A stretch of 64,000 nucleotides of DNA. Source: Cyanophora paradoxa CCMP329 (taxonomy: Eukaryota > Plantae > Glaucophyta). The notes under the pieces were generated by a model. The model was given only the letters and a program-made list of their open reading frames with translations. It had not been told where the DNA came from and made no database searches. The DNA lies in contig QPMI01000537.1 of the NCBI GenBank assembly GCA_004431415.1, positions 34,622-98,621 of the forward strand, given 5' to 3'. This document shows, piece after piece, positions 1 to 58,448 of the stretch; the stretch's first letter is position 1, and the number at the start of each line of letters is the position of its first letter. The position numbers and the translations under genes were made by a program.

Positions 1-287
1 GTAGTCCGCCATTGCGGTAAAGCCATTGCGGTCCGGCTCCAGGGCTGCAGATGTTGTACCCCTGAGCCCTCGGAGGTTGTCACTGTGGCGTCGGCAGAGG
101 GGCCGCTGGTCGGTGCAGCTGGCTGCCGCCGCCACCCAACTCTCGTGCAGCCCAAAATAAAGTTTTTCCCTGGCCTTCCGGGCAGGTGCAGCTGCAGCTC
201 TGTACGTGCAGGGGGCTTCGCGTGCATGCGCTGAGTGCAAAGGGGCTTCGGCGGTTTCTCGGCATCGTCGCCACGCGCATCCTGCGC

Positions 288-3200
288 GTCCCCTCGCCTC
301 CTCGACTCCCCGCAGAGGCGCCGCGCGGCCTCCTGCGGCGGGGCGCGCAGCGGGCGCGCGGGGGGCGCGGGCGGGGCTGCACGGCTCGCTCGGCGGCGGT
401 GGAGGGCGTCGGCGGCGCCCCGGCGTCGTCCCGTCGCCTCCTCGGCTCCCCGCGGCGGCGCCGCGCGGCCTCCTGCGTCGGGGCGCGCGCGGGCTCGGGG
501 GGGCGCGGGCGGGGCTGCACGGGCTCGCTCGGCGGCGGTGGAGGGCGTCGGCGGCGCCCGGCGTCGTCCCGTCGCCTCCTCGGCTCCCCGCGGCGGCGCC
601 GCGCGGCCTCCTGCGTCGGGGCGCGCGGCGGGCTCGGGGGGCGCGGGCGGGGCTGCACGGGCTCGCTCGGCGGCGGTGGAGGGCGTCGGCGGCGCCCCGG
701 CGTCGTCCCTCGCCTCCTCGGCTCCCCGCGGCGGCGCCGCGCGGCCTCCTGCGGCGGGGCGCGCGGCGGGCTCGGGGGGGCGCGGGCGGGGCTGCACGGG
801 CTCGCTCGGCGGCGGTGGAGGGCGTCGGCGGCGCCCCGGCGTCGTCCCGTCGCCTCCTCGGCTCCCCGCGGCGGCGCCGCGCGGCTCCTGCGTCGGGGCG
901 CGCGGCGGGCTCGGGGGGGCGCGGGCGGGGCTGCACGGGCTCGCTCGGCGGCGGTGGAGGGCGTCGGCGGCGCCCCGGCGTCGTCCCGTCGCCTCCTCGG
1001 CCCCCGCGGCGGCGCCGCGCGGCCTCCTGCGGCGGGGCGCGCGGCGGGCTCGGGGGGGGCGCGGGCGAGGCTGCACGGGCTCGCTCGGCGGCGGTGGAGG
1101 GCGTCGGCGGCGCCCCGGCTTCGTCCCCTCGCCTCCTCGGCTCCCCCGGCGGCGCCGCGCGGCCTCCTGCGGCGGGGCGCGCGGCGGGCTCGAGGGGGCG
1201 CGGGCGGGGCTGCACGGGCTCGCTCGGCGGCGGTGGAGGGCGTTGGCGGCGCCCCGGCTTCGTCCCGTCGCCTCCTCGGCTCCCCGCGGCGGCGCCGCGC
1301 GGCCTCCTGCGTCGGGGCACGCGGCGGGCTCGGGGGGGCGCGGGCGGGGCTGCACGGGCTCGCTCGGCGGCGGTGGAGGGCGTCGGCGGCGCCCGGCGTC
1401 GTCCCGTCGCCTCCTCGGCTCCCCGCGGCGGCGCCGCGCGGCCTCCTGCGTCGGGGCGCGCGGCGGGCTCGGGGGGGCGCGGGCGGGGCTGCACGGGCTC
1501 GCTCGGCGGCGGTGGAGGGCGTCGGCGGCGCCCCGGCGTCGTCCCGTCGCCTCCTCGGCTCCCCGCGGCGGCGCCGCGCGGCCTCCTGCGTCGGGGCGCG
1601 CGGCGGGCTCGGGGGGGCGCGGGCGGGGCTGCACGGGCTCGCTCGGCGGCGGTGGAGGGCGTCGGCGGCGCCCCGGCGTCGTCCCCTCGCCTCCTCGGCT
1701 CCCGCGGCGGCGCCGCGCGGCCTCCTGCGGCGGGGCGCGCGGCGGGCTCGGGGGGGCGCGGGCGGGGCTGCACGGGCTCGCTCGGCGGCGGTGGAGGGCG
1801 TCGGCGGCGCCCCGGCGTCGTCCCGTCGCCTCCTCGGCTCCCCGCGGCGGCGCCGCGCGGCCTCCTGCGTCGGGGCGCGCGGCGGGCTCGGGGGGGCGCG
1901 GGCGGGGCTGCACGGGCTCGCTCGGCGGCGGTGGAGGGCGTCGGCGGCGCCCCGGCGTCGTCCCGTCGCCTCCTCGGCCCCCGCGGCGGCGCCGCGCGGC
2001 CTCCTGCGGCGGGGCGCGCGGCGGGCTCGGGGGGGCGCGGGCGAGGCTGCACGGGCTCGCTCGGCGGCGGTGGAGGGCGTCGGCGGCGCCCCGGCTTCGT
2101 CCCCTCGCCTCCTCGGCTCCCCCGGCGGCGCCGCGCGGCCTCCTGCGGCGGGGCGCGCGGCGGGCTCGAGGGGGCGCGGGCGGGGCTGCACGGGCTCGCT
2201 CGGCGGCGGTGGAGGGCGTTGGCGGCGCCCCGGCTTCGTCCCGTCGCCTCCTCGGCTCCCCGCGGCGGCGCCGCGCGGCCTCCTGCGGCGGGGCGCGCGG
2301 CGGGCTCGGGAGGGCGCGGGCGGGGCTGCACGGGCTCGCTCGGCGGCGGTGGAGGGCGTCGGCGGCGCCCCGGCGTCGTCCCTCGCCTCCTCGGCCCCCG
2401 CGGCGGCGCCGCGCGGCCTCCTGCGTCGGGGCGCGCGGCGGGCTCGGGGGGGCGCGGGCGGGGCTGCACGGGCTCGCTCGGCGGCGGTGGAGGGCGTCGG
2501 CGGCGCCCCGGCGTCGTCCCGTCGCCTCCTCGGCCCCCGCGGCGGCGCCGCGCGGCCTCCTGCGACGGGGCGCGCGGCGGGCTCGGGGGGGCGTGGGCGG
2601 GGCTGCACGGGCTCGCTCGGCGGCGGTGGAGGGCGTCGGCGGCGCCCCGGCGTCGTCCCGTCGCCTCCTCGGCCCCCGCGGCGGCGCCGCGCGGCCTCCT
2701 GCGGCGGGGCGCGCGGCGGGCTCGGGGAGGGCGCAGGCGGGGCTGCACGGGCTCGCTCGGCGGCGGTGGAGGGCGTCGGCGGCGCCCCGGCGTCGTCCCC
2801 TCGCCTCCTCGACTCCCGCGGCGGCGCCGCGCGGCCTCCTGCGGCGGGGCGCGCGGCGGGCTCGGGGGGGCGCGGGCGGGGCTGCACGGGCTCGCTCGGC
2901 GGCGGTGGAGGGCGTCGGCGGCGCCCCGGCGTCGTCCCGTCGCCTCCTCGGCTCCCCGCGGCGGCGCCGCGCGGCCTCCTGCGTCGGGGCGCGCGCCGGG
3001 CTCGGGGGGGCGCGGGCGGGGCTGCACGGGCTCGCTCGGCGGCGGTGGAGGGCGTCGGCGGCGCCCCGGCGTCGTCCCGTCGCCTCCTCGGCTCCCCGCG
3101 GCGGCGCCGCGCGGCCTCCTGCGTCGGGGCACGCGGCGGGCTCGGGGGGGCGCGGGCGGGGCTGCACGGGCTCGCTCGGCGGCGGTGGAGGGCGTCGGCG

Positions 3201-3625
3201 GCGCCCCGGCGTCGTCCCCTCGACTCCTCGGCTCCCCGCGGCGGCGCCGCGCGGCCTCCTGCGGCGGGGCGCGCGGCGGGCTCGGGGAGGGCGCGGGCGG
3301 GGCTGCACGGGCTCGCTCGGCGGCGGTGGAGGGCGTTGGCGGCGCCCCGGCGTCGTCCCTCGACTCCTCGGCTCCCGCGGCGGCGCCGCGCGGCCTCCTG
3401 CGGCGGGGCGCGCGGCGGGTTCGGGGAGGGCGCGGGCGGGGCTGCACGGGCTCGCTCGGCGGCGGTGGAGGGCGTTGGCGGCGCCCCGGCGTCGTCCCGT
3501 CGCCTCCTCGGCTCCCCGCGGCGGCGCCGCGTGGCCTCCTGCGTCGGGGCGCGCGGCGGGCTCGGGGGGGGCGCGGGCGGGGCTGCACGGGCTCGCTCGG
3601 CGGCGGTGGAGGGCGTTGGCGGCGC
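288..3625. repeat. GC-rich tandem array, ~139-bp unit, ~24 copies
   Basis: Unit GGGGCTGCACGGGCTCGCTCGGCGGCGGTGGAGGGCGTCGGCGGCGCCCCGGCGTCGTCCCGTCGCCTCCTCGG... recurs at ~511, 649, 788 etc. with only SNP and homopolymer variation; no unique spacers. Confidence 0.95.
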
Positions 3626-3660
3626 ACGGGGCAGGAAAAGATGCGCCCCCCGCGCCCGCG

Positions 3661-5382
3661 ATGGCGGCGCTCTCGGCGGTGACCGACACCCACGAGCTCT
3701 GCCTGTTCGAGGGGCCCTACGGCCCCGCGCGCCTCGCGGTCCTCCGCACGGACGCGGGCCCCGGCGTCTGCGTGGCCGAGCTGGCCCGCCTCGTCGGCTT
3801 CGCCGGCGACAACGCGCGGTTCGCTGCGGAGTACGGGGTCCCCGTCCGGCCGCTCGCCGACTGGAACGCCGTGCTCCTCCTCGAATGCCTCGGGGCCGTC
3901 GCCCGCGGCTTCTGCAACGCCCAGGAGCGCCCGCCGCACGTCCTCGCGCTCCGCTACGTCGAGGAGGTGGTGAGCGGCGCGTGGGAGCGCTCGGACGACG
4001 CGCGCATGCACCGGGCGGCGGCGAGCCTCTTCGCGGGCCTCGAGCGGCGGCGGCAGGCCCGCCTCGAGCGGCTCGAGATGGGCGTCCTCTGGGCCGCGGG
4101 CGCGCGGTTCCTCGCCGTGCGCGCGCGCCGCGTCGAGACGCCGGAGCTCCAGTGGTGGGTGCCCCTCGCGAGCGTCGCCCAGGCCGTCTACGGCGACTCG
4201 CGCTCCACGAACTGCGTCCGGATGGAGATCATGAGGCGCTGCCCCGACCTCGCGGTGGGCGGGCCGCACCGCTTCGAGGCGAGCACACGGACGGTGGGGC
4301 GGGAGCGGCTCGCCCTCCTCACCCGCACCCTCGTCTACTACGGCGGTCTCGGCGCCGACATCGCCGCCAACGGCTCGGCGCGCCGCTGGGCCTTCCTCTC
4401 GACACTCGGCGTCGAGAGGCTGCTCGCGGGGCTGCCGGACCGCGACGGGGCGCGCGCCGCCGCCGAGTTCAAGCGCGCCCGCCTCCTTTTCGAGGGGGCC
4501 GACCCCGCGTCGCTCGAGGGGGCCCCCTCGCTCCCGCTCGCCCCGCCCCGCCGCATCTGCCTCTTCGGGCGCAAGTCCTGGCTCACGGTGAGCGACGGGA
4601 GGCCCGCGCGCGCGCGCGAGGCGGCGGGCGCTCACCTGAGCGGCGCGCGCGCAGGACACGGAGATCGCGAACGTGATGACGCTCCAGCTGCTTCGGGCCG
4701 GCGCGGGGCGCCGGGTGGTGGCGCTGTACCCCATGCACGTCGAGATCTTCGGCTCCGTCCTCCGCCGCTACGCGCGGCTCGACGAAGCGAAGCGCGAGCG
4801 CCGACCTCTCGGGGCCGCCGAGCGGGGCGCCTGCGTCCTGTGCCCCCTGAGCCTCGGAAACTTGCGGCGCGGGGCGGAGCGTACCCCGGGATGGTCCGCG
4901 GGGGGCCACTGGTGCCTCCTCGCCGTCGACGGGGCCTCGAAGCTCGTCCGCTGGTTCGACTCGCTCGGCGGCGCGCCGGAGACGGGCCTGGAGCGCGCGG
5001 CCAAGGCCGCCTTCCCGCGGGGGGCCCCTTTGTCAGCGAGACGCGGGGCCGCCTCCAGGTCGGGGACGGGTACCAGTGCGGGCCGTGGACGCTCTGGTTC
5101 GCCGAGGCGCTCACGATGGAGGTGCTGACTTCGTTCCCGTGGTCGGACGAGATCGACAGCGGCTCCCTGGCCTACGTGCGCGCGGGTGAGCCGGTGTCGG
5201 CGGCGATCGCGGCGGAGAACGGGCGGTTCATCACGGAGAAGCGCGAGGCGTACCGCTCGCTGCTCGAGGGCGGCGTCGTGGACCAGGCCGTGGCGCTCTT
5301 CGACGAGGATTCGCTGCCGGACGCCGAGCGCGTCGTCCTCCCGCCCACCGGCGAGAGGGCGGCCCGAAAGGGCAGCAAGCCC

Positions 5383-5416
<34 letters not shown>

Positions 5417-6345
5417 GTCCGCCACCCTCGCCGTCCTCGTCCTCGGCGACCTCGTCGGTCGAGGGGGGAGGCGTCGGTCGTCAACGACGTCGGCACCGTC
5501 GCCCGCCTGCTGGGGTACGTCAATCAGCGCGAGCGGGGGATCAGGCCGCTCGACATGGGGCTGCTCACCCGCGCCGACTTTGTCAAGATCTACCTCCGCT
5601 TCCTCCGCTACCTCCGCGAGGAGCGCCGCCTCGCGCCGGGGACCCTCGCCGGGTACACGCAGAGCGTCATGCAGGCGTGCGCCTTTGTCCATGCCCGCAC
5701 GGGCGGCGAGGCGGCGGGGGCCGAGGGGCCGCACGCGAGGCCCCTCCGAACCTGAAGACGCAGCTCGAACGCGAGAAGAAGCAGCGCCGGGGGTGGAAGG
5801 GGCGGGGACCGAACTGGATCTCGCTCGAGACGGTGCTGAAGGCGCGGTCCGACGCCCTCGCGGCGCACGAGGCGGCGCCGCTCCCCATCGACAAGGCCAA
5901 GGCCCTCCGGGAAGCGATCCTGATCGGGTTCTTGAGCATCACGCCGGCGCGGGTCGGCGTCGTGAGGCGCCTGCGCATCGGTCAGACGCTGCGGCGCGAC
6001 GGCGGGGCCTGGGCGATCTCGCTCACCGAGATGCGGCACGAGACGGGGGAGCTGGTGTCGAAGACGGCCAAATCGCACGGCGCCATCGTCTTGCCGGTGG
6101 CGGGGCCGCTGCAGGGGCCGCTCGAGGCGTACGTCTCCAAGTACCGGCGCCTCCTCCTCCCCGAGGGCGGCGCCGACGAGGGCTGGCTCTTCGCCTCCTC
6201 CTCCGGCGGCTGCCTCTCCGAGTCCGGGTGGGCCGTCTTCTGCCGCAAGGTCGGCGCCCCGCCGCGCGCACGGGGCCCCGCGGCCGGGCTCACGCGTTCG
6301 GACCATGATCAGGTGATGGTCAAGTACACGGGGGTCCCCGCTGCC
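3661..6345 (+). mobile_element. Multi-domain gene: Bro-N-like repeats + Ulp1/SENP (C48) cysteine protease + tyrosine recombinase; 3'-truncated; Crypton/virus-like element
   Basis: Bro-N-like motifs (CVAELARLVGF; WWVPLASVAQAVY; AFLSTLGVERLL...AAEFKR). After the GT-AG intron at 4588-4654: WLTDTEIAN, GHWCLLAVD, WFDSLG, QVGDGYQCG (C48 His/Asp/Gln/Cys motifs). Integrase N-terminal motif FLRYLREERRLAPGTLAGY; catalytic-domain motifs ITPARVGVVRRL and SKTAKSHG, then WLF. Second intron 6250-6312. Frame shifts near 5020, 5465 and 5740; HxxR and catalytic Tyr not found. Confidence 0.75.
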
Positions 6346-7165
6346 GGGCGCGCGCGAGGCGCCCGAAAGTGCTGTACTACGTCCGGAAAGAGCGTTGGTC
6401 ATGCTAGCCGGTCGGCGGACGTGACAGATGCGCCGCTGGTCTGAGGCTCGGTGGCTGACGATTCTGTCAGAACCAGCTGCCCGGTTGCGCAGGTTAAGAG
6501 AGTGAGTAGCAGGTCAATGTTTACCAAGAGCGTTCAAGCCGCCGCGCGCTGGTTCCGCTGGGACCTCGCGCTGAAGCTGCCTATAGCTAGGAAACTTGGC
6601 TAGCTATAGCTAGTTATTTTGCTTTTTTGTCTTTATGCCCCCTGGGCAGCCCCCGCAGTGCTGGTGTCTAGAGACTGTGGCCGGTAATTCACCAAAAAAA
6701 AATATAGCTAGCGCTCCCTGGCAAAAGGGACTTGAACTTTTCTGTACCCCCCAAAATGGAAAGTCGCGTCATTTCGAGTCTCAGAGAGTCTTGAAGCCTT
6801 GAAGCCCTATAGCTAGGCCTGTGTGAAGCCCTGTGGTTGCACATTGATAACACTGGCATACTAGCCGCGGACAACGCAGGCTAGAAGCGGCGGTGCTACC
6901 TACGGGGGCGAGAAGCCGCGGACGACGCAGGCAGGGCCCTCTGAAGGGGGGCGTGCACTCCCCCTGGGGTTCCTACAAACTACGAGCCTCGGAGGCCCTG
7001 AGGGGGACTCCGGGACGAGGGGGGGAGCTCGAGGCCTGCCGCGGCGGGGCCCGCAGGCGAAGACGGAGGAGCTAGGCCTAGGGAGGAAGCCGGGGCGCCG
7101 GCCGCCGCCGGGGCATGCGCAGCTGCAGCCGGCGCCGGATCGGAGAGCGGGGCGGGGCTCCCGGC

Positions 7166-7860
7166 GGGGTCAAGCCCTTGGCCGGCGCCGGCGCCGGGCT
7201 TGCGGCAATCGCATGCCTGAGGGGGGGGTACCCTTCCGCATGCCCTTAACAAAAGCTTAGCTAGCGCTTACTAAGTTAAGCTTAAGCTTGGCGCTGTATA
7301 TGTACATGTACATGTACTACGGTAGCGAACCCACCCTTTAATTTCCAGCCTTTGCCGCCTTTTCACTGGGCCAGACCCACGGATCATCGGATGCTCTTGC
7401 AAAATTGCCGCCTTTCCAGACCCACGACGGAAGCTTTCTCGCCTTGATGACCCACTGCTCCTGTGGCACTGCGGCATGCATATGGGGCGGAACTCCGCCG
7501 GCGCCGCCGCTGCTGCTGACGTGTCGACGTCGACGTCGACGTCGCCCTCATGATCATCGCCTTCGAATTCGCTGGGCGGAGATCTAGAGCTCCGAGGCTC
7601 GAAGAGCTCGCTGCAGCTGCAGGCTGCCGTTGAAACGAGATGTTGCCGTCGGCCCCCTTGCCGATCAGCGTCTGCACGCTCTTGCTCTTGGGCGGCATGC
7701 CGCTGGCCTTAAGATTGCGAACGCAGGCTTCGGCCCCCCTCCCCCCCCCCCCCCCCCCCCCCCCCCCGCCAGGGCTTGAGCCGGCTTGAGCCGGCCAAAA
7801 GCCGGGCAAGGGCTTGACCCCCCAGCCCGGCTCAAGCCCTTGGCTCAAGGGCTTGACCGC
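7166..7860. repeat. Cluster of inverted/direct GGGCTTGA / TCAAGCCC motifs, probable DNA-transposon remnant
   Basis: GGGGTCAAGCCCTTG (7166-7180) is the reverse complement of 7807-7821; AGGGCTTGAGCCGG (~7771) is inverted to CCGGCTCAAGCCCT (~7827). Confidence 0.4.
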
Positions 7861-7988
7861 AAGCCGCAGGCCTAGTAGCCACCATGGCCAAGCGAGGTCT
7901 AGGGCTAGGAATTCGAAGTAGCTCTCAAAATGGTATACGTATACCCATCTTAGTTCTTCAATGACGTATACCCGTCCACGGCTTCAAG

Positions 7989-10860
7989 TCCACAATTTAA
8001 GCGAACAGCGCAGGCCCAGATTCGAGCGCAGGCCCGTCCCGAAGCACATCTTCACGGCGACGCGGATCCACCGCATCGGATTTGCGGAGCTCATCGGGGA
8101 CGCGCTGAAGTCCTTCCCAATCATCGCCCGCGGCGTGTTTGCGGATGACCGCTCGCCGCCGCTGTTCGAGGTCACGAACGCGCGGCTCCTCGGCCCGGTG
8201 GGAGACGCCCGCCGCGCCAAAGTGCTCTCCGTGGCGGCGAACCGCAGGGACCTGCGCCTGTGCGTGGATGGATATGCAGAGCAGTTTTTGCGCCCTCTCT
8301 GATTCAGATGCGCAGCTACGTGTTGTACACGGACGGCTGGCTCGAGGCGTACGACGCGGCGCTCCTGCGGCGGGTCTGGGGCGTGCAGGCGTTCGCCTTG
8401 AAGGGCCAGCAGCTCCCGCGGCACCGGTGCGAGCAGGCCGGCACCGAGCTAGCGTCGGTTAGGTAAGGCCCCTGCAGCGTGGTGGAGGCGGACGAGGCGA
8501 CGGGCCTCATCATCGTCAACACATGCTTCATGGACGAGCATGTGCGTTGGGAGGAGAGCTTCGGTCAGCTCCTCTGAGCTCACCCTTCTCTCAGATCCGC
8601 TTCTACGAGCCTGTGGCGGGCCGCATGGCGTACCGCATCGAGCCGAAGCTGACGCTGCCGGCGCCGCCCTCGGCGACGACGACGCCGCCGAGCACGGGCC
8701 GGGCGCGCCCCACTGAGGCCAAGGCGAACCGCTACGCGTCGGCGATCCAGCGGATGTTCCGCAAGCACCTGGCGCGAAGTGGGAGGAGCGCATGCGCTGC
8801 CTCGTCAGCGGCGGCGGCGGCGCGGCTGGGGCCGACGAGGGCCCGGATGGCGGCCTCGTGGACTCGACGGTGCGCGTGTGGGACGTCGAGGGGGAGCTGC
8901 GGAAGCCGCTGGCGGTGGGGGAGCAGCGCACGACGCCGCGCTGCAAGGCGGCGCGGGTGCTGCAGGGCCACACGCGGGCCGTCACGGGCGTCGCGTACCT
9001 GCCGCGCTCGGCCCTCGTCGTCTCGGCGTCGCTGGACCGCTCCATCCGCTTCTGGGACCCGATGGCCCGCCCCCACGCCCTCACCATCCCCGAAGCCCCG
9101 CCGTGCGCGCCCCCTGAGGGCTTCTTCCTTCTCGCGCTGATCCCATCTCAGGCACGTCCGCGTCTGGCCGGGCTACTATGAGCCACTGAAGATGGAGTGG
9201 ACCAACAGCAACCAGGTCCGCCTCCGTTGTCTCTGCCGCGCCGCCCCCGCCAAACGCTCCTCCCCACAGCCCTTCAGCGAGTGCCTGAAGCTCACCACGG
9301 CCCACGTCGCCCACGTGCGCGCCTCCCCTCCTCTACACCCGCGCCTCTAACCCCCCGCAGCGGCTGGAGGCGGTGGCGTGCCCGCTGACGGCGAGCGGGG
9401 AGGACCCGTCGGCGGTCTTCGAGGTGCTGCTGGCGTCGACGCGGGACCCCGTGCTGGGCGCCAAGAAGAGCGCCGTCTGCGCGTGGATCGTCTCCGGCAA
9501 CGAGGTCACCGTCGAGGCGCACCGCTTCGACGACCCCGCCAAGCAGGAGGTCCTCGACGAGTGCGAGGAGTTCGCCCTCCGCGACTGGCACCGCCTCCTC
9601 GTCCGCTACTCGGGCGTCGCCACGCGGGCGCTGCAGGACGCCGGCGAGGCCGACCTGCGTCGCGAGGCCCGCCGCCAGCTGCTGGACAGCGCCTTCCGCA
9701 GCGCGTGGCTCGACCGCGGCGGGCCGCACGCGGCGCTCCGGCCTGACGCCCTCCAGCGGATCTTCTCGCTGGCGCAGGAGAAGGCCGCGGGGCTCTACCG
9801 CCGCTCGGCGCAGCCGCACCTCTCGGCGGACGAGGCCTACCGCCTGCTGGTCGACCACGGGCACTTCACGGGCCGCAACCTCGCGACGCCCAGCGCCTTC
9901 TGCCGCTTCCTCCACCCGCTCCTCGCCCCCGAGAGCCGCACCGCGGCGGCCGCCGCCGCGGAGATCGCCGCCAAGCAGGGCCGGCCCTCCGCGGGCGCCC
10001 CCAGGAGCTTCAAGACCTCCCTCATCCCCGCCTCCTGTGCGTTTTCAACTCTCTCTCGTCTGCTCCGCGGCTCACCCTCGCGCAGCGGAGGTGGCGGGGG
10101 CGACGAAGACCTCGCTGGAGGCGGCCGTGCACTCCCTCGGCATGCCGCAGCCGCGTGCTGGACGACCTCGACGCGGAGGCCGCCGCCTCACCGGACGGCC
10201 GCGTCAACCCGGACACCTTTGCCCGCGCTGATGCTCCCTTTATGCTCTGTTCTTTCTACTTCTCGCTTAAGTGTCCGCAGTCGGGGCGATGGGCGAGCTG
10301 CTGACGGGCGCGGCGCCCGCCGGCGACGACGGTCTCGGCCCGGGCGAGCGTGAGCAGGCCCGCGTCCTCCGCGCCGTCTTCGAGGGGTACAATCTATTCT
10401 TAGAGATGAGATACGTACCCCCTGACGGCCCGCAGGCGGATGCTGGACCGGCCAGGCAGGTCAGGTGCCTAGCCCCCGACCTGCCTGGCCGGACCTATCC
10501 GAGTAAATTTTTTTTCTGGTGGTCAGGTGCCTGCGGCAGCGCAGCCCCGGGGCCTCGGCGGCGCCCCTCTCCCTCCTCGCTGGCTCGACCCGCAGGCGGC
10601 GGGCCCCCATTGCCTCGACAGACTGGCGCCGCCGCCTCGACGGACTGGGGCTGGGGCCTCGCCCCCCGCGGCTACCCCGACCCGCACCTGCTCGTGCACC
10701 CGCGGCCGTGGCGGCGCGTGGGGCGGGTGCTTCCCGCCGTGGACGAGGCGCGGCGGGGCTGGCTGCCCCCCGAGATGGACGACGCCGCCGCCTACATGCT
10801 CGACTGGCTCCTCACTCGAGCTCTCTACGACGACTTCTGCGACGGGTCTACGGCCTCCAG
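7989..10860 (+). CDS. WD40-repeat protein with IQ motif (multi-exon, 5' part apparently missing, boundaries approximate)
   Basis: VDSTVRVWDV and LQGHTRAVTGVAYLPRSALVVSASLDRSIRFWDP (WD40); SAIQRMFRKHLAR (IQ-like); possible EF-hand-like DLDAEA...DGRVN; GT-AG introns. Confidence 0.7.
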
Positions 10861-12280: not shown

Positions 12281-13022
12281 CGTTGCATTATGAACCACGT
12301 ATAAAGCAGGTCAACACTGGTTTCGCGGTCACATTCCATTCCGTGCAGCATCGCAAGGTGCGTTGGCGTCTTCCCGTCGTCTTCCCCCTCATCGTGGTCC
12401 GCATGCTCAGCGAATGCACGCGTCACAGGTCACCAGAATCAGCGGCGGGCCGCCTCCGCGCGGCCTGGCGAGGCTTCGGGCACATCCATCGTGCTCGAGC
12501 AAATGCCCAGTTCGTTCTGCGCCCTGGTCCTTCATGAAGTCCTGCACCTGACCCCGGAATGCAACCACGCAGGCGCTTCTCCGCCTCGGGATCTGCGCTT
12601 CACCGCGCAGGGGGCTCGTCAAAGCTGCCACCGGTCCTCGTGAGCACGCGCGCGCTCGTTTTGCCCGCGCGTCGTTCCGAAGTTCCTTGACATGTTCTCG
12701 TCGCTCGCAGCGGGCCGCCTCCGCCGCTTTCGAGTGCGCCCTCGCGCGCCTCGCGCCGAGCCCCCCTTCCTCACCTTCGCGTCGCGGCAGGCTCGTCTTC
12801 CCAACGAGGCAGAGGGCACACCGGGTTCGCGGCGCGCCGCGCCCGGGCGCCCACTCCGCGATGGTCCTCTGATGCATCGTTGCGCCCTTCGGCGCGCAGG
12901 CGCTCGCCTTTGGTGGGAGGCTCGTCGATCGAGTGCGCCCCCGTTCCCTTTGAAACCAAGGCTTTTTCGATATATCGATCTGACCCCCTTTTTCGCCCTC
13001 CGGCGCAGGCTGACTCCATGTC

Positions 13023-13058
<36 letters not shown>

Positions 13059-13562
13059 AGGGTCCGTAGGGGCTCCCGCCCAAGACGCGCCCCAGGTGCG
13101 CACCGCGCGCACAGGTGCCCTGGAGCGTCGATCTGCTCGGCGGCTGATCGTCCTCCGCCCGCGCAGGCGCTCCTCTGGGTGGGAGGCTCGTCGATCGAGT
13201 GCGCCCCCGTTCGCTTTGATTTGGATATCGAGACCGTTCGATTTCGATCTGACCCCTTTTCGCGCCCCCCCGCAGGCTGACTCCATGTCGGGCCCCCCTC
13301 AGGGCCTGTAGGGGCTCCCGCCACCGCCCCGAGACGACCCCCGCCGCCACAAGACGCGATGCAGCACCACGCCGCGCATACGGGCACCTGTAGCTATTTA
13401 GCTAGCCAGAGTGTCCGCGGGGAGGCGCATTACTCTCCTTAGGGGGCCACGCAGGGCCCGGCCGGCCGGTTCGCTGGTGGGCTGGGCCCGCGGCCGCGGC
13501 GGCCGCAGTGTACATTCCCACACTTGTAGCCCGGACCTGCGTTTTAGTACGTGTCCAAATGC
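12281..13562 (-). mobile_element. Dispersed non-coding repeat element, copy A (inverted relative to 41516-42445)
   Basis: Near-identical reverse complement of 41516-42445 apart from an extra ~310-bp segment (~12550-12860); internal sub-repeat; ankyrin-like fragment DDGKTPTHLA. Confidence 0.75.
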
Positions 13563-14333
13563 TAAGAGTCATCGTTAAAAAGAAACAACGGATGCGGCGT
13601 ATAAAGTCGCACTTCGGAGCCGATGAGAAGGAAGAACGGCTTATTGTGCACGTGAGAGCCTGGAGCGGCGTCTTCCCCGTTCCGCCAGATGGACGGCCCG
13701 CGATTAGCTGCGTTCTGGAAGAATTGCAACGATTGCACAGGCTGCCGCACCGATGCTCTCGAAGGACATTCGACGTCGCGATGGTAGCGGCGGGCACGGC
13801 AACAAATTAAAGGCTGGCATACTGACGGCGACCCTCGCTCGTACTTGCAGGGTCCAAAACGCTGCCTGGGTTGCTGGGCGCGCGAAGTCTCGCTGTGGCA
13901 AGCGGGCTGAGCTCGAGCAAGGCGCGCGCTGCGTTGCATGATCTGAGCTGCGCCGACTGTACCCTGGGGAACAAGCAACTGCCTACGTACCCGCAAAAGT
14001 TCGGCGCAGCCGTTAATTTCCTACCCAACCGATCGCGACAGCTTCAAGCCGCGCAAAGTTTTGACTTCGACAGCGCAGCTGCGCGCGCGCGCGGGCGGTG
14101 CGACGCGCGATATCGCGATACACTGCGGAAGGCGCCGGCAGCGCATTCGCCACTGCACCGTGTTCATGTCGCAAAATTGCGAAGTGGGTCTGGGGGTACA
14201 GCACTCCGCGCGTGCGCATGCGGCGGCAGTTACTAAGTTACTCGAACCATGATCCGCTCCTGCAGTACTAGTGCGCTTCTGTGCTGCGCAACAGAAACGG
14301 CACCCGCGCACATCGATATCAGCCCGCGACGAG

Positions 14334-34236: not shown

Positions 34237-36059
34237 TTAGATAGGTAGGTAGGTAGATAGATAGGTAGATAGGGAGATAGGTAGATAGGTAGAAAGCCCT
34301 CTCTCGCGCACCACGCGGTAGTGGAGGCCCGGGATGTCGGAGAGGTGCAGCTCCCGCTCCAGCTCCTCCGCTGCCCCCGCCCCGAGCCCGAGAACGACCC
34401 TAAGAAGAGGGCGCCGGGCGGGGGGGGGGAGGGGGGGGAGGGGGGGGAGTGGGGGGGGAGGGGGGGGGGGGGGGGGCTCTAGCCCAGCGCGGCTCTAGCT
34501 TGGCGGGGCGGGCGGTCCTAAGGGCCTAGAAGAAGGCGCGGGGCGGGGCCCGCGGCCCTAAGAAGAAGACGCCGGCCGGGGCCGGGGGCGAGGCGCGCCG
34601 CGCCCCCTCTAGCCAGCGCAGCCCAGCGCGGCTCTAGCTTGCTAGCTTGGCCTGGCCTGGTGCTAAGGGCGGGGCGGACCGGTGGGCGGGCTCTAGCCCG
34701 GCGCGGCTCTAGCTTTCTAGCCTGGCCTGGTCCTAAGGGCCGGGCGGACCGGAGGCGGCGCCGGGGAGGTCCTGCTTGGTCCCGAAGACGAGGAAGGGCT
34801 TCGTTCGCATCAGCGCCTCCCCCGCCATCTGAGGCCGAGGCGCTCAGATGAGGCCGAGGCGCTCAGACGCGGCGCTCAGAAGTGGCCGGGCGGGTCGCGT
34901 TTCTAGCGGGGTTTCTAGCGGGGCGGGGCGGGAGGGGGGCGCTGGGGCGGGCCTTGTGCTAGGGGAGCGCTGGGGGCGCTTATATGAGTCTAAAGCCTAG
35001 GCTAGGCTATGGGGCGGGCGCGGGGGCGGGGCGGGCCTTGTGGAGGGTGCGGCGGCACTTGTCGAGGTTCTCCGCGTCCGCCGCGTCCACCACGAAGATG
35101 CAGCAGAAGAGCTGGGGGGGTCAGGGGGGGGGTAGAGGGCCGGCTGGGAGCGAGGGGCGCGGGGGGGGGGGGGCGGCGGCCGCGGCCGGGCCGTCGGGAA
35201 GAAAAGAGCTGGCGCGGGCTAGGATTGGGTGGGGCGAGGGGGAGCGGTGGCCCTCGGCCAGGTCGTCGGGGGGAGGGGGGTACGCGGCGCACGTCGATGA
35301 GATACCTGCGGGCGGGGTAAGCGGGGCGGGGCGGGGCGGGACAGGGCGGGAGAGGCGGCGGGGGCCGCTATGCTCGGCTGGGCGGGGCGGGTCGGCGGCG
35401 GCGGCGGCGGCGGCGCGCCGCTAGGAGGCCGCGCTGCTCTGCTCTGCTCTGCTCTGCTTGGCGGGGCGCGGGGCGCTGCTCACTTGGACCAGACCTCTGG
35501 GTCGATACGGTACGAGTGGCCCAGCTCGAACTTGCCCGTCGTGAAGCTCACCTGCCGCCGCGCCGGGCCGGGCCACAGTCAGCGACGTTTTAGGTGGCGC
35601 CTAAGCGGCGGCGTCCTTCGTCTATCCGCTGCGCTCGCGCCCGCGCGGCGCTGAGCTCTCCCTCCGGCGCCCCAGCGGCCTGCCCCGCCGACTCCGGCCG
35701 TCCTCTAGCCGCGAGCGGGGCGCGCGCTGACCTTCTCGCCCCCGCACTCGACGAGCTCCGGGCGCGCTGCGGCGTGACGCGACGCGCCTCAGCGCGCCGG
35801 GCACGCGGGTGGGCGGGCGCTGCGATGGGGCGGCGGCGGCGGCGCGCCTTTGAGGATCTCGCCAACGGCTCGCCGCAGCGGGTCCATCAGCGTCTTCTTA
35901 CCCGCGCCGATGTGCCCCGTGAGGCCGATCTGCGCGCGGAGGTTCGCCGCGGCCGATGCGGGTCCGAGCTACCGCGAACGTGCAAGCTTCAGGGCGCACC
36001 GGCATCATGGCGCCGCTTGGGCCCTTGGGCTTCGACGACGGTGCAGCGGGAGCCGCCAT
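24847..36059 (-). CDS. Predicted fusion: ARL13-like Arf GTPase + long coiled coil + glutathione-synthetase-like (ATP-grasp) domain
   Basis: GTPase exons: IGLTGHIGAGKKT (G1), FELGHS (degenerate G3), CIFVVDAADAENLDKC, KPFLVFGTKQDLPGA (G4), DPAIREGLEWVI followed by coiled coil. GSS-like exons: DVARSWALHHGL, HVPLVLHPSPFPRPSF, LAVLRHDFML, MRAGYNP-KDY...WDTRTLIERSSAIKCP...HQLV, AYVLEERM, GFDCIGSAFF-stop at 24847. Confidence 0.65.
28896..29095. repeat. (CTAAT/CTAATCT)n microsatellite in intron
   Basis: Direct reading of tandem CTAAT units. Confidence 0.9.
34171..34292. repeat. (TAGA/TAGG)n microsatellite in intron
   Basis: Direct reading. Confidence 0.9.
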
Positions 36060-36799
36060 CGTTCGAGCGCGGTCCGGAGGGCTGCCTGCGTGTCGATCTT
36101 CGCCTAGTCTACGTCAGAGACGATTGCGCTACTCGTGCTGAGCCGGCTGGGCGCTACGAGGCGCGCGCCGAAACCCAGACCAGGCTCGGGCGCAAGCTCG
36201 GACGACGCACGCCTGCCACTCTCCGAGTCGTCCGCAACACGCCTCGCTGGCCTACCTCGCCGGGCGCGCTGAGCCCGATTCGGCCGTGACGAAGCACAGC
36301 GTACCCCCGTACACAAGCCAAACTTCGGTCCCAGCCGAGCGCGGCCATTACAGAAGCGCCGATAGGTGCGTGCGAGAGTTCTATGCGCTTCTTGCGCACA
36401 AGCCGCTCACTGCCGGTTGTTGCAGCCGCAATTCTCTCCGCAGCCCGACGCCGCAACGGTCGCCGCAACGATCGCTGACTGCTTCTAAGGCTTGTCTTGT
36501 ATTCCTCCATTGCGAGCGATCCGCCGCCGCCGCCGCGAACGAGCTCTTGCAATTGTTTCGCGAGGCGCGCGCCGGCGCGCGGAAAATGCGTCATCATCGC
36601 CGACGGCGAGGTAAAGCAGCTCAAGCCGAAGGAGGCGCCCAATCAGCACACGTAGCGTCGTTGCGCGGCTTGTGGTCGTACGGCATACCGAGCTCGCTGG
36701 TACGTGAAGTTAAAGCCGCGCGCCTGCAGCTGCGGCGCTAGTCGTGCAGCTCGCGCAGCTTTAGCAAGCCCGTCCGCGACTGATCGCACCTTGCGCATG

Positions 36800-39700
36800 T
36801 GCAGGGCGTCTGGCTCCTGAGGAACCGCCTCAAGTGCAAGCTCTCCGCGGCCAATACCGGTCGCGGTCTGCGGCGCGGAACCCGCCGAAGCGCGACCGCG
36901 GCCGCGGCCACGGCCGGCGCCGGCCCTGCAGCATCCCCCTTTCCCGTGTCGGTCGCAGCTCCGGCCGCGGCGCCGGCCACGGCGCCCGTCGCGGCAGCCA
37001 ACGCTGTGTCCGTCAAGACTCCGCCCCATATCGGGATCGGCTCCTTTTCGTGCACGTGCACGCCCGCTAGCGTGTGCAGCGCGTGCACGGATCTCGTCTC
37101 TACCTTGCACGAGTACCTCGGCCGCCTGCCCTCCAAGCTGCGCGACTACGCTGCAGACATGCAGGTTCGGCGCCCTCGCCCTCTCGCATCTTCCCGCTCC
37201 TCACTGCCCGGCGCAGGAGTACCTAAACACGCTCGAGCAGACCGTCGGGCCGAAGCACGCCCTGACCGCCGCCTGCTCGCTCCGCCTCGCCCTCGCCCGC
37301 GTCGATCTCCGGGAAATGGACGAGGCTGCCAGGCTCTACGAGGTACTTGTACGTGCCCTGGCCTGGATCGCTCGATCTTACGATCGCGGCGCCCCGCAGC
37401 GGGCGCGGGCGCTCTACGCCGAGGACGGGAGGCTGCGGGCGGCGAGCAGCCCCGGCGCCCTCGCCGAGCACGGCGAAGTCCTGGGCGGCGTCCACCACGC
37501 CAGGGGCGACCTTCCCTCCGCCAAGAGGGCCTACCTCGTTCGCCCCTTTGAAATCGGCTAGCCCAAGTTGGCATGGCCTCTTCTCTCTCACACACACACG
37601 TGCAGTGGGCCCTTTCGTGCCGCGAGGAGCGCCTGCGGCCGCCGCTCGTGCCGACGCCCGAGAGCTTGATCTACATGGCCAAGACGGAGTACCACCTCGG
37701 CGTCTGCGTTTTCCTCATGGGCGACAACGACGCCTCGGAGTCTTACTTCAAGATACTCCATAAATATTGATCATGACAAGCTTCCGCTGACTGCCCCCGC
37801 AGTCCGGCTACGCGCACGAGCGGGAGGCGGGGGGCGGGGCGGGGATCGCGCGGCGCTGCTGCGACCTGCCGGTCCACGCCTACCTCACCCTACTCGGGAG
37901 GGGGCACTCCGCCGCCGGCCGCCTGGACCGCCTCCACGACGTCATGCGGGTCCGTTATCGTACGACGCGGCCCGGCCCTGCCCTGGAGCTTAGCTTAAGC
38001 CCAGCCTAGATTAGAATCTTAGCTTAAGCTAAGCTTAGCTAAAGATAAAGCCTCGGCCGGTGCGGGCGTACGACGCGGCCGGGCCGGGGGCGGCGCCCGT
38101 GCTTAAGCTAAGCTTAAGCTTGCGCCGCCTCGGCCGACCCGGCCGGCCTGGCTTCGGCTGGGGCGGCGCCCGCGCTTCAGCCTTAGCTTCAGCCGCCTCG
38201 GCCGACCCGGCCGGCCTGGCTAAGCTTAAGCTCGAGTCGCCTCGCAGATGGCTGCGGCGATCGCGGAGCGCGGGCTGTGCCGCGCCTGCGTCGCGCGCGG
38301 CGACCTCGCCGGAGTCGCCAAGGCGTTCTCAAGCATCTGCTGCAAGCGCGGCGACTTCGCCAGCGCAGAGGCGTTCTTAGAGGTGGGCGGGCGATCCCGG
38401 CCCTCGCCTTGTGCTTGATAAGGACACCGAACGCGTGCCAGGCACGCGTGCCGGGGTTGCCCGGCAGGGCAGAGTCCTCCTCCTTAGACTATCTGCCCGC
38501 CGTCCTAGGCATAGCTATATAGCCTTCTGCCTGCGCGGCCTTAGACGTCGACGTCGCTGACGCCCTCTGCTCTACAGCGCCTCGTGGCGGAGACCGAACG
38601 GCTCCTGGGCGCCGAGCACCGCCGCCTCGGCTCGGCCCTCGTGCTCCTCGCCCGCTGCAAGCTGGACGCCGGCGAGCCGCCGGAGACCATCTACCCCCTC
38701 GCCCGCGTGCGCCCGGACCCGTCCCGTCCGGCCGACGCGCGCTGTACCCCTGCCGCTCGCTCACCTGAGCCGTACCGCAGCGCGGGTGGGGGGTTCTCAG
38801 GGCGACCCTGGGCGCAACCAGCCCTAGCCCCGAGGTCGAGGGGGCGATCATCCTGCTAGGGGAGCTGCTGAGCAGGGCGCCGCACTTGGACGCCGACAAG
38901 AGCGTCGATATCGTCCAGGTGCGTCCCGTTTTCGAATCCGCCCGGCCCGAACTGATGCATTAGTCTTAAGGCGTACGTGCCCGCAGCGCGTTCTGGACTG
39001 GGCATCGGCGAACGACCGCATGCCGGCGGTGAACATTGTGCTTCGGATACCACGGCACATCGCGGTCTCTCACTCAGGCCCGCCTTGCACCTCCCCGGCT
39101 GTGCATTTACCACGTAAAACCGGCAGGAGCGGGCACTCCCCAAGGAAACCCTCAGGGCGCGAATGGACAGCAGACTGGAGACGCGCAGGCGGGAGAAGGA
39201 AGAGCGGCAGCGGGCGGAGGAGGAGCGCGAGCGGGCGCGGCGGGAGGCCGAGCGCGCCGAGCGCGCCGCCCGCGACGCCGCCGACCGCGTGCGCCGTCTG
39301 AGCCGTCTGAGCCGTCTGAGCCGTCTGAGCTCGCCTTCGAATTCTGAGCTGCGCGGGGGCAGGAGGCGGCAAAGAGGCGTATGGGGGGCTCGCAGTGGGC
39401 CCCCGCTAAGAAGCTCCTTACGCGCCTTGACGCGCTTCTCAAGGTTAGTAAGCCTCTTTCCCCCCCTCCCGCCTCCTCCCCTCCTCCCCTACCCCCTCCC
39501 CCCCTCCCTTCGAATTCCGTCACACACACACACACACACACGCCCTCCCCGCCTCGAAATTAGAAAGCGCACCCCCTCCCCGGCCCTTACCCCAGCCGTC
39601 CACCCCTCCCCCCCCTCTCTCCCCCCTGCCTCCAAGAGTGCTGCCCCCCCCCCCCCCCCCCCCCCCCTCCCCCCCAATGCCTCTAAGAGGGGCGCGCAGC

Positions 39701-41017
39701 GATCGCCGGGCGACTTCGAGGGTCGCCTGCTCCGCATCCGTGCGCGAGCGAGCGAGCCGAGCCGAGCCGGTCCTCGGCTCTGATTTGATCTCGCTGACGG
39801 GCGGGCGGGCGGACCCGGGGGGGCGCAGAGTGCATGGCAGGGGCGGGCCAGCTCGAGGAGGCGGGGCGGGAGGCGGAGCGGGCCGAGCGGGCGCTCGCCG
39901 GCGCCGGCGCCAGCGCGGACGCCCTCCAGAGGTGCGCATGCGCGGTCCGGTCGCCCTCCCTCCAAGGCTCGACGGGCGCGCCCTGAGCCGCAGCGGCAGG
40001 GTTCAGGATCAGCGGCGCGTCATCGCGGGCGAGCTGCTGCAGCGCGAGGAGGCGAAGAAGCGGGAGGAGGCGCAGAGGCGGGAGGAAATGGCGGCGAAGA
40101 GGAAGGAGGAGGAAGAGGAGGCGCTGCGCGCGAAGGAACAGCGGCGCGCGCAGGAGCGGCGGCAGCTGCAGCGGAAGGAGCAGAAGCGAGAAGAGGCGCG
40201 CCCGCAGGCGGAGGGAGCCGAGCGGCAGCGTGCGGCGGAGCAGCTGCAGCAGCGGAGGCGCGAGGAAGAGCGGCGGGCCGCGCAGGCAGCTGCAGCCGCG
40301 GCAGCGCCAGCGGAGACCTCAAGCCCGCCGCCTTCCGAGGCCGGCCCCAGCTCGGGCCGTTGGTCGGAGGCTGCGGCTGCGGCTGCCGCCTGCCGCTTCT
40401 TCGCGAGGGGCCTCTGCCGCAACGGCGACCGCTGCCGGTGCGGGAGGTTGGGCGGGCCGGGGCTTCGAATTCCCCGCGCGCCCCTAGCCTCTCGCGCGGT
40501 CGTCCCGCCCCTCTGTCGACTGTTTGTTTGGCAGGTACCGGCACGAGGCGAGGGCGGACGCCGGGGCGGGGGCGGGCGACCTCGAGCCTGGGCCCGCGCC
40601 GGCGCCTTTCGCGGCCCCCGAGGGGCAGATCCAGGGCCCGCGGGCGAGCCCGGGCCCGAGTGCGCCATCTGCCTCGGGCCCCTGTCTGCCGGCCCGCCCG
40701 CCGCCGCCCTCCCCTGCCGCCGTGCGCCCCGCACCCAAAGCGTCTCTTGCTTCTCTAATTATAATGCCTAAGATTTACCTTGCGCTTGCATCTCCGCAGA
40801 CCGCTTCCACGGCCCCTGCATCGAGGCGTGGAGAAGGGCGATCGCGAGCTCGGGCGGGGCCGCCGCCGGCCGCCGCCCCTGCCCCTTCCGCTGCCCCTCC
40901 CGGCGCGCCCCACTCGGCCCTACCTGCCCCCGGCCTCTTCTCCACTCGAGCCTCTTCCCAGTAATTTATTCGCCTTTCAGGCGTTTAGCTTGCAATTGCT
41001 GCACGACAGCCGATTAG
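36800..41017 (+). CDS. TPR-repeat protein with coiled coil, CCCH zinc finger and C-terminal RING-H2 (putative E3 ligase); start uncertain (may extend to ~36290)
   Basis: TPR-like LGGVHHARGDLPSAKRAY, YHLGVCVFLMGDNDASESYF, RLLGAEHRRLGSALVLLA; CRFFARGLCRNGDRCRYRH (CCCH); CAICL...LPC-HRFHGPCIEAW...CPFRC (RING-H2). Confidence 0.75.
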
Positions 41018-41515
41018 CTGACGTCTTATCGTCTGCTCTGACCTATAGCTATATATATCAAGGGGGGTCGACTGCTTTTCCCCGCAGCGCTGGCAAACGC
41101 ACAAGCACACTGCGACCGCATGTAAAGCGCAGGCTGCGCAGCCCGCCGAGCGATCGACTCGGCGACCTGCTGCCGGCGCCGCTACGGCATGCGCAGCCGC
41201 GCGCTAGATATGCAGCTGCGGGCCTAGGCGCGAACGGTACCGACAGCTTGCATGTGATCATGACCAGGACAGTCGGATATCTAGATCTTATAAATCAACC
41301 GCGCGACCCTGAGAAGAGGGCGCCGCGCGGGGGAGGGGGCGCGGCCCAGCGCGGCTCTAGCTTGCTAGCTTGGTCCTAAGAAACCTGGTCTTGCAGCCCC
41401 AGAACGACCCTAAGAAGAGGGCGCCGGGCGGGGGCGAGGCGCGATGCTCTAGCTTGGCCGGCCCGGGCGGGGGTGGGGGTGGGGCGGGGGGCGCCGCGCA
41501 GGCCGTGAACAGTTC

Positions 41516-42519
41516 GCATTTGGACACGTACTCAAAACGCAGGTCCGGGCTACAAGTGTGGGAATGTACACTGCGGCCGCCGCGGCCGCGGGCCCAGCCC
41601 ACCAGCGAACTGGCCGGCCGGGCCCTGCGTGGCCCCCTAAGGAGAGTAATGCGCCTCCCCGCGGACACTCTGGCTAGCTAAATAGCTACATGTGCCCGCA
41701 TGCGCGGCGTGGTGCTGCATCGCGTCTTGTGGCGGCGGGGGTCGTCTAGGGCGGTGGCGGGAGCCCCTACAGGCCCATGGAGGGAACCCGACATGAGGTC
41801 AGCCTGCGGTGGGCGCGAAGAGGGGTCAGATCGTAATCCAAAATCAAAACAAACGGGCCGCACTCGATCGACGAGCCTCCCACCCAGAGGAGCGCCTGCG
41901 CGGGCGGAGGACGATCAGCCGCCGAGCAGGCCGACGCTCCAGGGCACCTGCGCGCGCGGTGCGCACCTGGGGCGCGTCTTGGACGGGAGCCCCTACAGGC
42001 CCTGTGGGGGGCCCGACATGGAGTCAGCCTGCGCCGGAGGGCGAAAAAGGGGGTCAGATCGATATATCGAAAAAGCCTTTGTTTTCAAAGGGAACGGGGC
42101 GCACTCGATCGACGTGCCTCCCGCCAAAGGCGAACGCCTGCGCGCCGAAGGGCGCAACGATGCATCAGAGGACCATCGCGGCAGGACTTCATGAAGGACC
42201 AGGGCGCAGAACGAACTGGGCATTTGCTCGAGCACGATGGATGTGCCCGAAGCCTCGCCAGGCCGCGCGGAGGCGGCCCGCCGCTGATTCTGGTGACCTG
42301 TAACGCGTGCATTCGCTGAGCATGCGGACCACGATGAGGGGGAAGACGACGGGAAGACGCCAACGCACCTTGCAATGCTGCACGGAATGGAATGTGACCG
42401 CGAAACCAGTGTTGACCTGCTATATACGTGGTTCATAATGCAACGTTTCAGCTTTCGACTTTCGAGCATGAAAGGCGAGGGAAAAAGTGGTTTTCGAGGG
42501 GAAAACGTAAGGAGGTCGG
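41516..42519 (+). mobile_element. Dispersed repeat element, copy B, flanked by an 11-bp direct repeat GTGAACAGTTC (candidate TSD)
   Basis: Matches the reverse complement of 12281-13562; GTGAACAGTTC at 41505-41515 and 42520-42530. Confidence 0.6.
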
Positions 42520-51345: not shown

Positions 51346-51550
51346 TAGTATACTAGTAGCCTAGTGCTAGTATTGGTAGTATGTACTAGCGCAGAAACAA
51401 ATCCGACCGTCGGACCGATGATATCGATCGTGTCTTTTGGCACTTCGGGATCACGGCGGGATCGGATATCGAATCATATTAACGATACCGTAATACACAA
51501 TATATTATGTCATGCAAATTTATGTCGTTTAAACCCGAGCCTTCAGACTC

Positions 51551-57440: not shown

Positions 57441-58448
57441 TGTGGAGGGTGCGGCGGCACTTGTCGAGGTTCTCCGCGTCCGCCGCGTCCACCACGAAGA
57501 TGCAGCAGAAGAGCTGGGGGGGTCAGGGGGGGGTAGAGGTGGGAGCGAGGGGGCGCGGGGGGGGGGGGGGGCGGCGGCCCGCGGCCGGGCCGTCGGGAAG
57601 AAAAGAGCTGGCGCGGGCTAGGGATTGGGTGGGGCGAGGGGGAGCGGTGGCCCTCGGCCAGGTCGTCGGGGGAGGGGGGGTACGCGGCGCACGTCGATGA
57701 GATACCTGCGGGCGGGGGTAAGCGGGGCGGGGCGGGGCGGGACAGGGCGGGAGAGGCGGCGGGGGCCGCTATGCTCGGCTGGGCGGGGCGGGTCGGCGGC
57801 GGCGGCGGCGGCGGCGCGCCGCTAGGAGGCCGCGCTGCTCTGCTCTGCTCTGCTCTGCTTGGCGGGGCGGGGCGCTGCTCAGACCTCTGGGTCGATACGG
57901 TACGAGTGGCCCAGCTCGAACTTGCCCGTCGTGAAGCTCACCTGCCGCCGCGCCGGGCCGGGCCACAGTCAGCGACGTTTTAGGTGGCGCCTAAGCGGCG
58001 GCGTCCTTCGTCTATCCGCTGCGCTCGCGCCCGCGCGGCGCTGAGCTCTCCCTCCGGCGCCCCAGCGGCCTGCCCCGCCGACTCCGGCCGTCCTCTAGCC
58101 GCGAGCGGGGCGCGCGCTGACCTTCTCGCCCCCGCACTCGACGAGCTCCGGGCGCGCTGCGGCGTGACGCGACGCGCCTCAGCGCGCCGGGCACGCGGGT
58201 GGGGGGCGCTGCGATGGGGCGGCGGCGGCGGCGCGCCTTTGAGGATCTCGCCAACGGCTCGCCGCAGCGGGTCCATCAGCGTCTTCTTACCCGCGCCGAT
58301 GTGCCCCGTGAGGCCGATCTGCGCGCGGAGGTTCGCCGCGGCCGATGCGGGTCCGAGCTACCGCGAACGTGCAAGCTTCAGGGCGCACCGGCATCATGGC
58401 GCCGCTTGGGCCCTTGGGCTTCGACGACGGTGCAGCGGGAGCCGCCAT
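57438..58448 (-). pseudogene. Truncated duplicate of ARL13-like GTPase 5' exons
   Basis: G1 through CIFVVDAAD...LHK exons duplicated, then joined to unrelated sequence at ~57438. Confidence 0.6.

Follow-up and report, generated by a model that had tools for sequence, protein, structure and literature searches.

What kind of gene joins a likely ubiquitin/SUMO-type protease to a tyrosine recombinase in a glaucophyte alga, and does it belong to a mobile element? The question is raised by positions 3661 to 6345 of a 64,000-nt stretch of Cyanophora paradoxa CCMP329 DNA (the window), in which an initial annotation had described a single spliced reading frame linking two Bro-N-like segments, a C48 protease and a recombinase.

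Layout and decay of the window copy

The gene model of the window copy is P0003 (EP00741 Cyanophora paradoxa tig00021043_g17614). Together with a tandem array in front of it, the gene was resolved into the following features.

287..3625, no strand: tandem array, 24 x ~139 bp (TRF 23.9 copies, 96%; 24 units counted)
3661..4587, + strand: exon 1, N-terminal module and protease start (WLT); 70% identical to P0001 residues 2-305
~3667-4071, + strand: segment N1, first segment of the N-terminal module, exon 1
~4072-4554, + strand: segment N2, second segment of the N-terminal module, exon 1
4588..4654, + strand: intron 1, 67 nt, GT..AG, phase 0, between WLT and D
4655..5364, + strand: CE-clan (C48-like) cysteine protease and the conserved helices after it; frameshift at ~5021-5025
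5365..5476, + strand: low-complexity linker and deletion junction; ~75 codons lost
5477..6249, + strand: tyrosine recombinase, rest of the core-binding domain and first half of the catalytic domain; frameshift at ~5744-5748
6250..6312, + strand: intron 2, 63 nt, GT..AG, phase 0
6313..6339, + strand: last exon stub VMVKYTGVP; the gene ends before KxxR, His and Tyr

The two GT-AG introns proposed at the outset are supported by the paralogue proteins, which are colinear and uninterrupted across both phase 0 positions (between WL-x and D, and between FVRR and VM). No splice joint was seen in RNA-labelled contigs, which gives no evidence either way on splicing or expression; one of these contigs matches 5787-6251 and carries 18 further unaligned letters.

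Of the three small frameshifts in the original description, two are real. They are shifts of 1-2 nt near 5023 and near 5746, located by tblastn with P0001 as reference; on translation, the pieces of the gene fall in two frames. The middle one turned out to be a deletion of ~75 codons: residues 542-653 of P0001 stand opposite 112 nt of window only (tblastn), and the deletion takes away the initial helices of the core-binding domain of the recombinase. Other copies part from the window sequence at 5478, a loose contig end. Two DNA-labelled runs from separate studies, one of which may be the assembly's own sample, provide contigs that cover 4306-5085, 5457-6039 and 6042-6640 with 0 gaps and extend ~20 nt past the deletion junction, next to a masked repeat. 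Since gapless contigs of this kind span both small frameshifts and the 3′ junction, assembly error is unlikely, and as an origin of the frameshifts it was rejected. The 3′ truncation junction is bridged by the contig spanning 6042-6640. Family similarity ends at ~6339, so that KxxR, His and Tyr are all lost, and the sequence past this point is found elsewhere in the genome; in two RNA-labelled runs, 6343-6373 is preceded by other sequence than here. The exon pieces have a GC3 of 0.94-1.0. With no catalytic Tyr, two frameshifts, an internal deletion and a lost 3′ end, 3661-6339 is a dead, frameshifted, 3′-truncated copy of a dispersed gene family. Judged by its reading frame, an active recombinase cannot come from this copy.

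The 139-bp array ends 35 nt upstream of the ATG and is possibly part of the element. No lox-like palindrome was found in 1-560 or 3480-3700, and three one-mismatch palindromes lie in 6250-8000, beyond the truncation. Pfam assigned only host-type domains to the 94 window ORFs (WD40, Alg9-like mannosyltransferase and a weak CCCH finger) and returned no capsid, packaging ATPase or polymerase/replicase, a search that would miss divergent capsids, short exons and anything upstream of the window. Joints indicating a circle were absent from the contigs of the sequencing runs, and element ends, target sites or empty sites came to light for no Cyanophora copy. Other repeats share the window. An A/T-edged element of ~90 bp at 6611-6702, with a summed depth of >60,000 and many different flanks, is likely a high-copy repeat. 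A 6.6-kb direct duplication (35036-41650 and 57438-64000; 98.7% identity) is preceded by tandem copies within 51548-57440, and an inverted dispersed repeat pair (12281-13565 and 41513-42445) is 89-99% identical in parts.

The gene family in Cyanophora and its domains

With the window recombinase as query, 2 proteins were found among 3087 candidates. Searching 1.84 billion representatives with a profile yielded 216 matches at E<=0.001. The matches listed, the best 150 of 216, are mostly recombinases. Among them are at least 11 labelled Cyanophora paradoxa gene models on 10 contigs and the further family-like proteins P0009, P0011, P0024, P0032 and P0041; the non-Cyanophora ones that were looked up come from metagenome assemblies. 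The Cyanophora models are ~37-78% identical to P0001 (best local alignment), many of them partial, most copies being fragmentary or merged with unrelated gene models. Four proteins (P0001, P0002, P0004 and P0152) keep the His/Asp/Cys motifs of the protease as well as the recombinase set; P0002 is shorter and has gaps. P0001, P0004 and P0152 (~1300 aa) display the order N1-N2-protease-linker-recombinase, followed by a conserved C-terminal region with a CxxC..H..C motif. The search revealed no shorter relatives of the P0001 recombinase, and by Pfam none of the family proteins has a reverse transcriptase domain. Where two paralogues are near-identical, as some are, they may be alleles on separate contigs. 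A variant contig had, in either DNA-labelled run, ~7-8x the depth of the contigs of the window copy, a hint of a recent multi-copy subfamily, depth not being copy number.

All residues expected of a complete C48 motif set were located in the window: WLT and D, split by intron 1, GHW (His 4907), FDS (Asp 4958), Q (5056) and CG (Cys 5077). The Pfam C48 match of the window (E 0.031) lies under the cut-off, as do those of the paralogues. The best solved match of the P0001 protease is the CE-clan enzyme ChlaDub2, a deubiquitinase/deneddylase (E 5e-5), and the family protease has a His-Asp-Cys triad with an oxyanion Gln in the order H..D..Q..C. The domain is therefore likely a CE-clan, C48-like protease of the ubiquitin/SUMO type, as far as its motifs and profile matches indicate. 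Likeness to ChlaDub2 does not fix whether such an enzyme would act on SUMO, NEDD8 or ubiquitin.

The recombinase motifs named in the initial annotation were recovered as well. The phage-integrase N-terminal motif corresponds to a SAM-like match with E 0.0013, though under the Pfam cut-off, and the catalytic Arg and Lys lie at 5950 and 6061, the only catalytic residues kept by the window copy. In the intact paralogues the set R-K-(K/Q/R)xxR-H-Y is complete. Counted over the family proteins aligned at each site, Arg is conserved in 124/124, Lys in 102/108, the second Arg in 65/68, His in 56/56 and Tyr in 51/53. The His of HxxR is kept in only 4/67; K is the usual replacement, and Q or R also occur. 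AlphaFold modelling of P0001 residues 1-996 from two sequences reached a pLDDT of only 29.5. The relative P0018, predicted from 72 sequences, reached 86.5. In this model the C-terminal part superimposes on Cre (Z 13.0, rmsd 5.0, 277 aligned; Foldseek E 6e-7), with Ndc10 (Z 7.4) and QRICH1 (Z 6.0) ranked below Cre and Xer. The predicted structure of P0018 thus is a Cre/Xer fold with core-binding and catalytic domains.

The N-terminal module was not what had been proposed. Neither Pfam (PF02498) nor PHROG matched Bro-N in the window or the family proteins, and a single E. coli Bro-N sequence and a single P1 KilA-N sequence, the only ones compared, went unmatched by the family profiles; the Bro-N label was dropped. 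KilA-N, APSES and Bro-N are related folds. Residues 5-140 of the P0018 model resemble Dachshund (Z 8.8, rmsd 3.0, 95 aligned), a Ski-like domain (Z 7.5) and Mbp1 (Z 6.6), where values of Z <8 may reflect a common arrangement; the model supports a KilA-N/APSES/Dachshund-like fold for the N-terminal domain of this relative. Of the two segments in Cyanophora, N2 alone is weakly linked to the P0018-type domain (hhalign score 24.1, E 0.0016, 103 columns, probability only 16%), with control scores of at most 15.0 in 40 shuffles and 17.3 for the reversed sequence. The score of N1 against the same domain, 12.5, falls within the shuffles, and N2 did not align to the N-terminus of the 59-protein clade described below. 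A duplication giving rise to N1 and N2 found no support in the profile comparison. Among the relatives, 40 of 50 tested N-termini fall in one cluster, which includes P0018.

Relatives outside Cyanophora and the origin of the recombinase

A metagenomic clade of 59 proteins with at least 50% identity to the query P0015 exhibits the same domain order as the Cyanophora proteins plus a chromodomain (Chromo in 36/36 aligned members). Alignment probabilities are 99.4% for its protease against that of Cyanophora and 84% for its N-terminus against the P0018-type domain. All nine tested motifs are kept in 36 of the 59. The proposed fusion of N-terminal module, protease and recombinase in one protein is thus borne out by the intact paralogues as well as by this distant clade. 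Tudor, PHD and BAH domains were matched by Pfam in other family members.

Phylogenetic trees were calculated from 86 sequences (envelope >=300 aa, >200 bits) and from a subset of 47; in both, deep nodes are weak and the sequences include no Crypton. The Cyanophora recombinases group with a clade devoid of the protease and not with P0015 (47-sequence tree, SH-aLRT 100), which implies that the C48 domain is ancestral and was lost, or was exchanged. In a sister clade, 9 of 86 recombinase sequences bear, in place of the upstream protease, a motif after the recombinase that looks OTU-like; Pfam OTU had no match among the 82 ORFs of related loci.

These loci derive from one metagenome scan, which returned 70 loci (numbered with L) with a family recombinase, the contigs of the P0015 clade not being among them. 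Convergent recombinase pairs are present at L010, L018, L019 and L035, accompanied by inverted repeats at L010 and L035 and, by cross-comparison, at L018 and L019. The repeat pair of L035 measures 123 bp. At L010 (2394-21144) a perfect inverted repeat of 5067 bp, which could be partly an assembly artefact, encloses a Tigger-like DDE gene together with a convergent pair of recombinase genes; its inner edges hold both start codons, and it includes part of a primase/helicase-like ORF with a weak primase match. L032 (2282-20847) combines the recombinase with a telomere resolvase (E 6e-15), SF2 helicase, HNH, RING and DnaJ, a 264-bp inverted repeat and tandem repeats of 170-180 bp; it resembles a linear plasmid or virus-like element, and no capsid was detected in it. 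Short tandem repeats upstream of the recombinase were observed in some relatives, e.g. L010, L013, L027 and L032. ORFs adjacent to the recombinase at L064 (7037-9068) and L032 (5134-5730) look SET-domain-like by eye and have no Pfam match. A motif of ~12 bp is common to L007 (1586-1638), L025 (2185-2222) and L001 (773-862 and 3896-3985), where it forms palindromes between divergent recombinase genes or lies within 90-bp direct repeats flanking the L001 gene. These shared motifs are candidate recombination sites.

The closest prokaryotic relatives found are integrases of cyanobacterial plasmids, e.g. Nostoc WP_179076821.1 and Anabaena WP_015338129.1. A distant clade of the matches (P0127 and others) led to 15 plasmid records, all cyanobacterial, at <=38% identity. 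A 77-sequence family profile built without this bridging clade scored 80-140 bits on 7 of 8 cyanobacterial plasmid integrases and 40 on the remaining one, compared with 15 for XerC, 12 for XerD, 3 for lambda Int and 1 for Cre. A profile of Cyanophora proteins only gave 13-52 bits on the cyanobacterial integrases versus 6 or less on the controls. Direct tblastn from P0001 or P0034 on the plasmids produced no match, and in the 47-sequence tree the Cyanophora clade is not nested among the plasmid integrases. P0124, P0127, P0135 and P0142, proteins with N-terminal extensions, do nest with Nostoc plasmid integrases (SH-aLRT 96); going by these extensions, they are possibly organelle-targeted algal proteins. 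GTDB scans, limited by the patterns used, returned no relative.

Affiliation, competing explanations and implications

Taken together, the data point to a dispersed Cyanophora gene that encodes a predicted DNA-binding module, a CE-clan protease and a complete recombinase, probably the transposase of a Crypton-type element with a recombinase lineage of its own, of which the window holds a broken copy; we put the probability of this reading at about 0.65. The one-protein architecture, the conserved catalytic residues, the dispersed and partly decayed copies and the predicted Cre-like fold of a relative form its grounds, and by sequence the family likely represents a Crypton-type DNA transposon of a new lineage. 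The family proteins agree with a broad definition of Cryptons, i.e. multi-copy eukaryotic elements with a recombinase as sole catalyst, no reverse transcriptase and introns allowed. Three narrower definitions found no support in Pfam. CryptonF is defined by a GCR1_C/Ndc10-like recombinase, CryptonA by a DUF3504-type recombinase and Starships by a DUF3435 captain, and no match to NDC10_II, GCR1_C, DUF3504 or DUF3435 was obtained in 72 family proteins (E<=0.05 or looser) or 36 members of the P0015 clade. CryptonS is marked by a recombinase clade of its own, a conserved C-terminus and TATGG termini. Cryptons have terminal direct repeats of 4-6 bp and no TIRs, whereas some of the relatives reported here carry long inverted repeats. 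An active CryptonF has been described in Chlamydomonas (PMC9977147).

The initial annotation had not recognised the three-way fusion as a known architecture. Novelty seems to lie in the lineage of the recombinase and in the domain order within one ORF; the pairing of recombinase and C48 peptidase is already described for oomycete Cryptons, namely CryptonF-2_PS and some CryptonS with an Ulp1-related peptidase (Kojima and Jurka 2011, PMC3212892; see also PMC13465315). Like these eukaryotic elements, the Cyanophora family combines a tyrosine recombinase with a C48-like peptidase and has no reverse transcriptase domain. The Cyanophora protease is located upstream in the same protein, after the N-terminal module, while the C48 of CryptonS is by description an additional protein (PMC3212892). 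Among titles and abstract starts, with Repbase, subscription journals and supplements outside the scope, nothing was found on such an architecture, order or lineage.

The annotation had also left open a Crypton-like or a virus-derived element. Crypton-like is the best reading, and nothing in the window or in five scans of viral contigs spoke for a viral origin. An unlikely reading, though the best placed of the alternatives, makes the gene an integrase or resolvase within a larger element of viral or plasmid kind (polinton-like virus, giant-virus insertion or inverted-repeat linear element), of which the Cyanophora copies would be dispersed leftovers. It is favoured by the gene content and inverted repeat of L032, by the convergent recombinase pairs with inverted repeats, by the long single ORFs of the P0015 clade on contigs of up to 297 kb, and by the giant-virus insertions and polinton-like viruses reported in Cyanophora (PMC12344493, PMC12220804). 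Polinton-like viruses with a tyrosine recombinase are likewise integrating elements of protists (PMC12220804), and viral recombinases are treated there and in bioRxiv 10.64898/2026.10.13.758929. In contrast to such viruses, the window copy has spliceosomal-type introns and no capsid, packaging ATPase or replicase detected nearby. Pfam found no capsid, packaging ATPase or polymerase in the 82 ORFs of related loci either, genes that it can miss; other relatives adjoin host-type genes (TIG, Clp protease, histone fold), and the five IMG/VR scans, which were pattern-based and weak, contained no relative.

It is improbable that the intact paralogues have been domesticated as host genes for a factor of chromatin or recombination, beside which the window copy would be an ordinary pseudogene. 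Both catalytic sets are kept between subfamilies that are only ~40-50% identical, paralogue-type variants occur in RNA-labelled runs (the RNA label being a guess), and domestication of Crypton recombinases is on record (PMC3212892). However, the domesticated recombinases described there lost their catalytic residues, which the Cyanophora family keeps, and the prevalence of fragmented or misfused copies speaks against a host function. Still slightly less probable is membership in a catalogued Crypton group, be it C48-bearing CryptonF or CryptonS or a family present in Repbase only: the shared C48 peptidase is outweighed by the missing Crypton-type domain matches, the ranking of Cre and Xer above Ndc10 and QRICH1 and the 80-140 bits of the family profile on cyanobacterial plasmid integrases.

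For the Crypton-type element, a mechanism can be proposed by analogy. Following the Crypton model, the element would be cut out as a circle by the recombinase and inserted through site-specific recombination, and the N-terminal module would bind DNA at the element ends or at its own promoter. The protease might free chromatin or repair proteins of SUMO, NEDD8 or ubiquitin and thereby relieve silencing. Of the two roles initially considered for it, this removal of ubiquitin-like modifiers is the probable one, and self-processing of the polyprotein is rather unlikely. Anti-silencing is favoured since in relatives the protease is absent or an OTU-like domain sits elsewhere in the protein, and since the protease travels with chromatin readers. 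A parallel exists in Ginger1, where Ulp1 and OTU are used interchangeably with the transposase (PMC2836005). Ginger1 and Mutator likewise have a protease for ubiquitin-like modifiers fused to the transposase (PMC2836005); unlike these DDE transposases with TIRs, the Cyanophora catalyst is a tyrosine recombinase. Cyanophora methylates repeats and silent genes (PMC12344493).

On a wider scale, and with somewhat less than even odds, the proteins may represent an undescribed superfamily of eukaryotic tyrosine-recombinase elements, related to cyanobacterial plasmid integrases and present in several protist lineages. One protein would unite a DNA-binding module of KilA-N/Dachshund fold, the recombinase and swappable anti-silencing modules (C48 or OTU; chromo, Tudor, PHD). 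Its simplest elements would be transposons of a single gene, and its largest would have inverted repeats and either two recombinases or a telomere resolvase.

The window copy is a fossil that points to the family. Eukaryotic transposons with tyrosine recombinases are few and poorly understood. If our reading is true, a separate lineage with a traceable prokaryotic relative would be available as undamaged copies in an alga that can be cultured and whose methylome is published, and would be a source of new Cre-like enzymes. With its built-in protease of the de-SUMO/de-ubiquitin type, it could be tested directly whether proteases carried by transposons counteract silencing.
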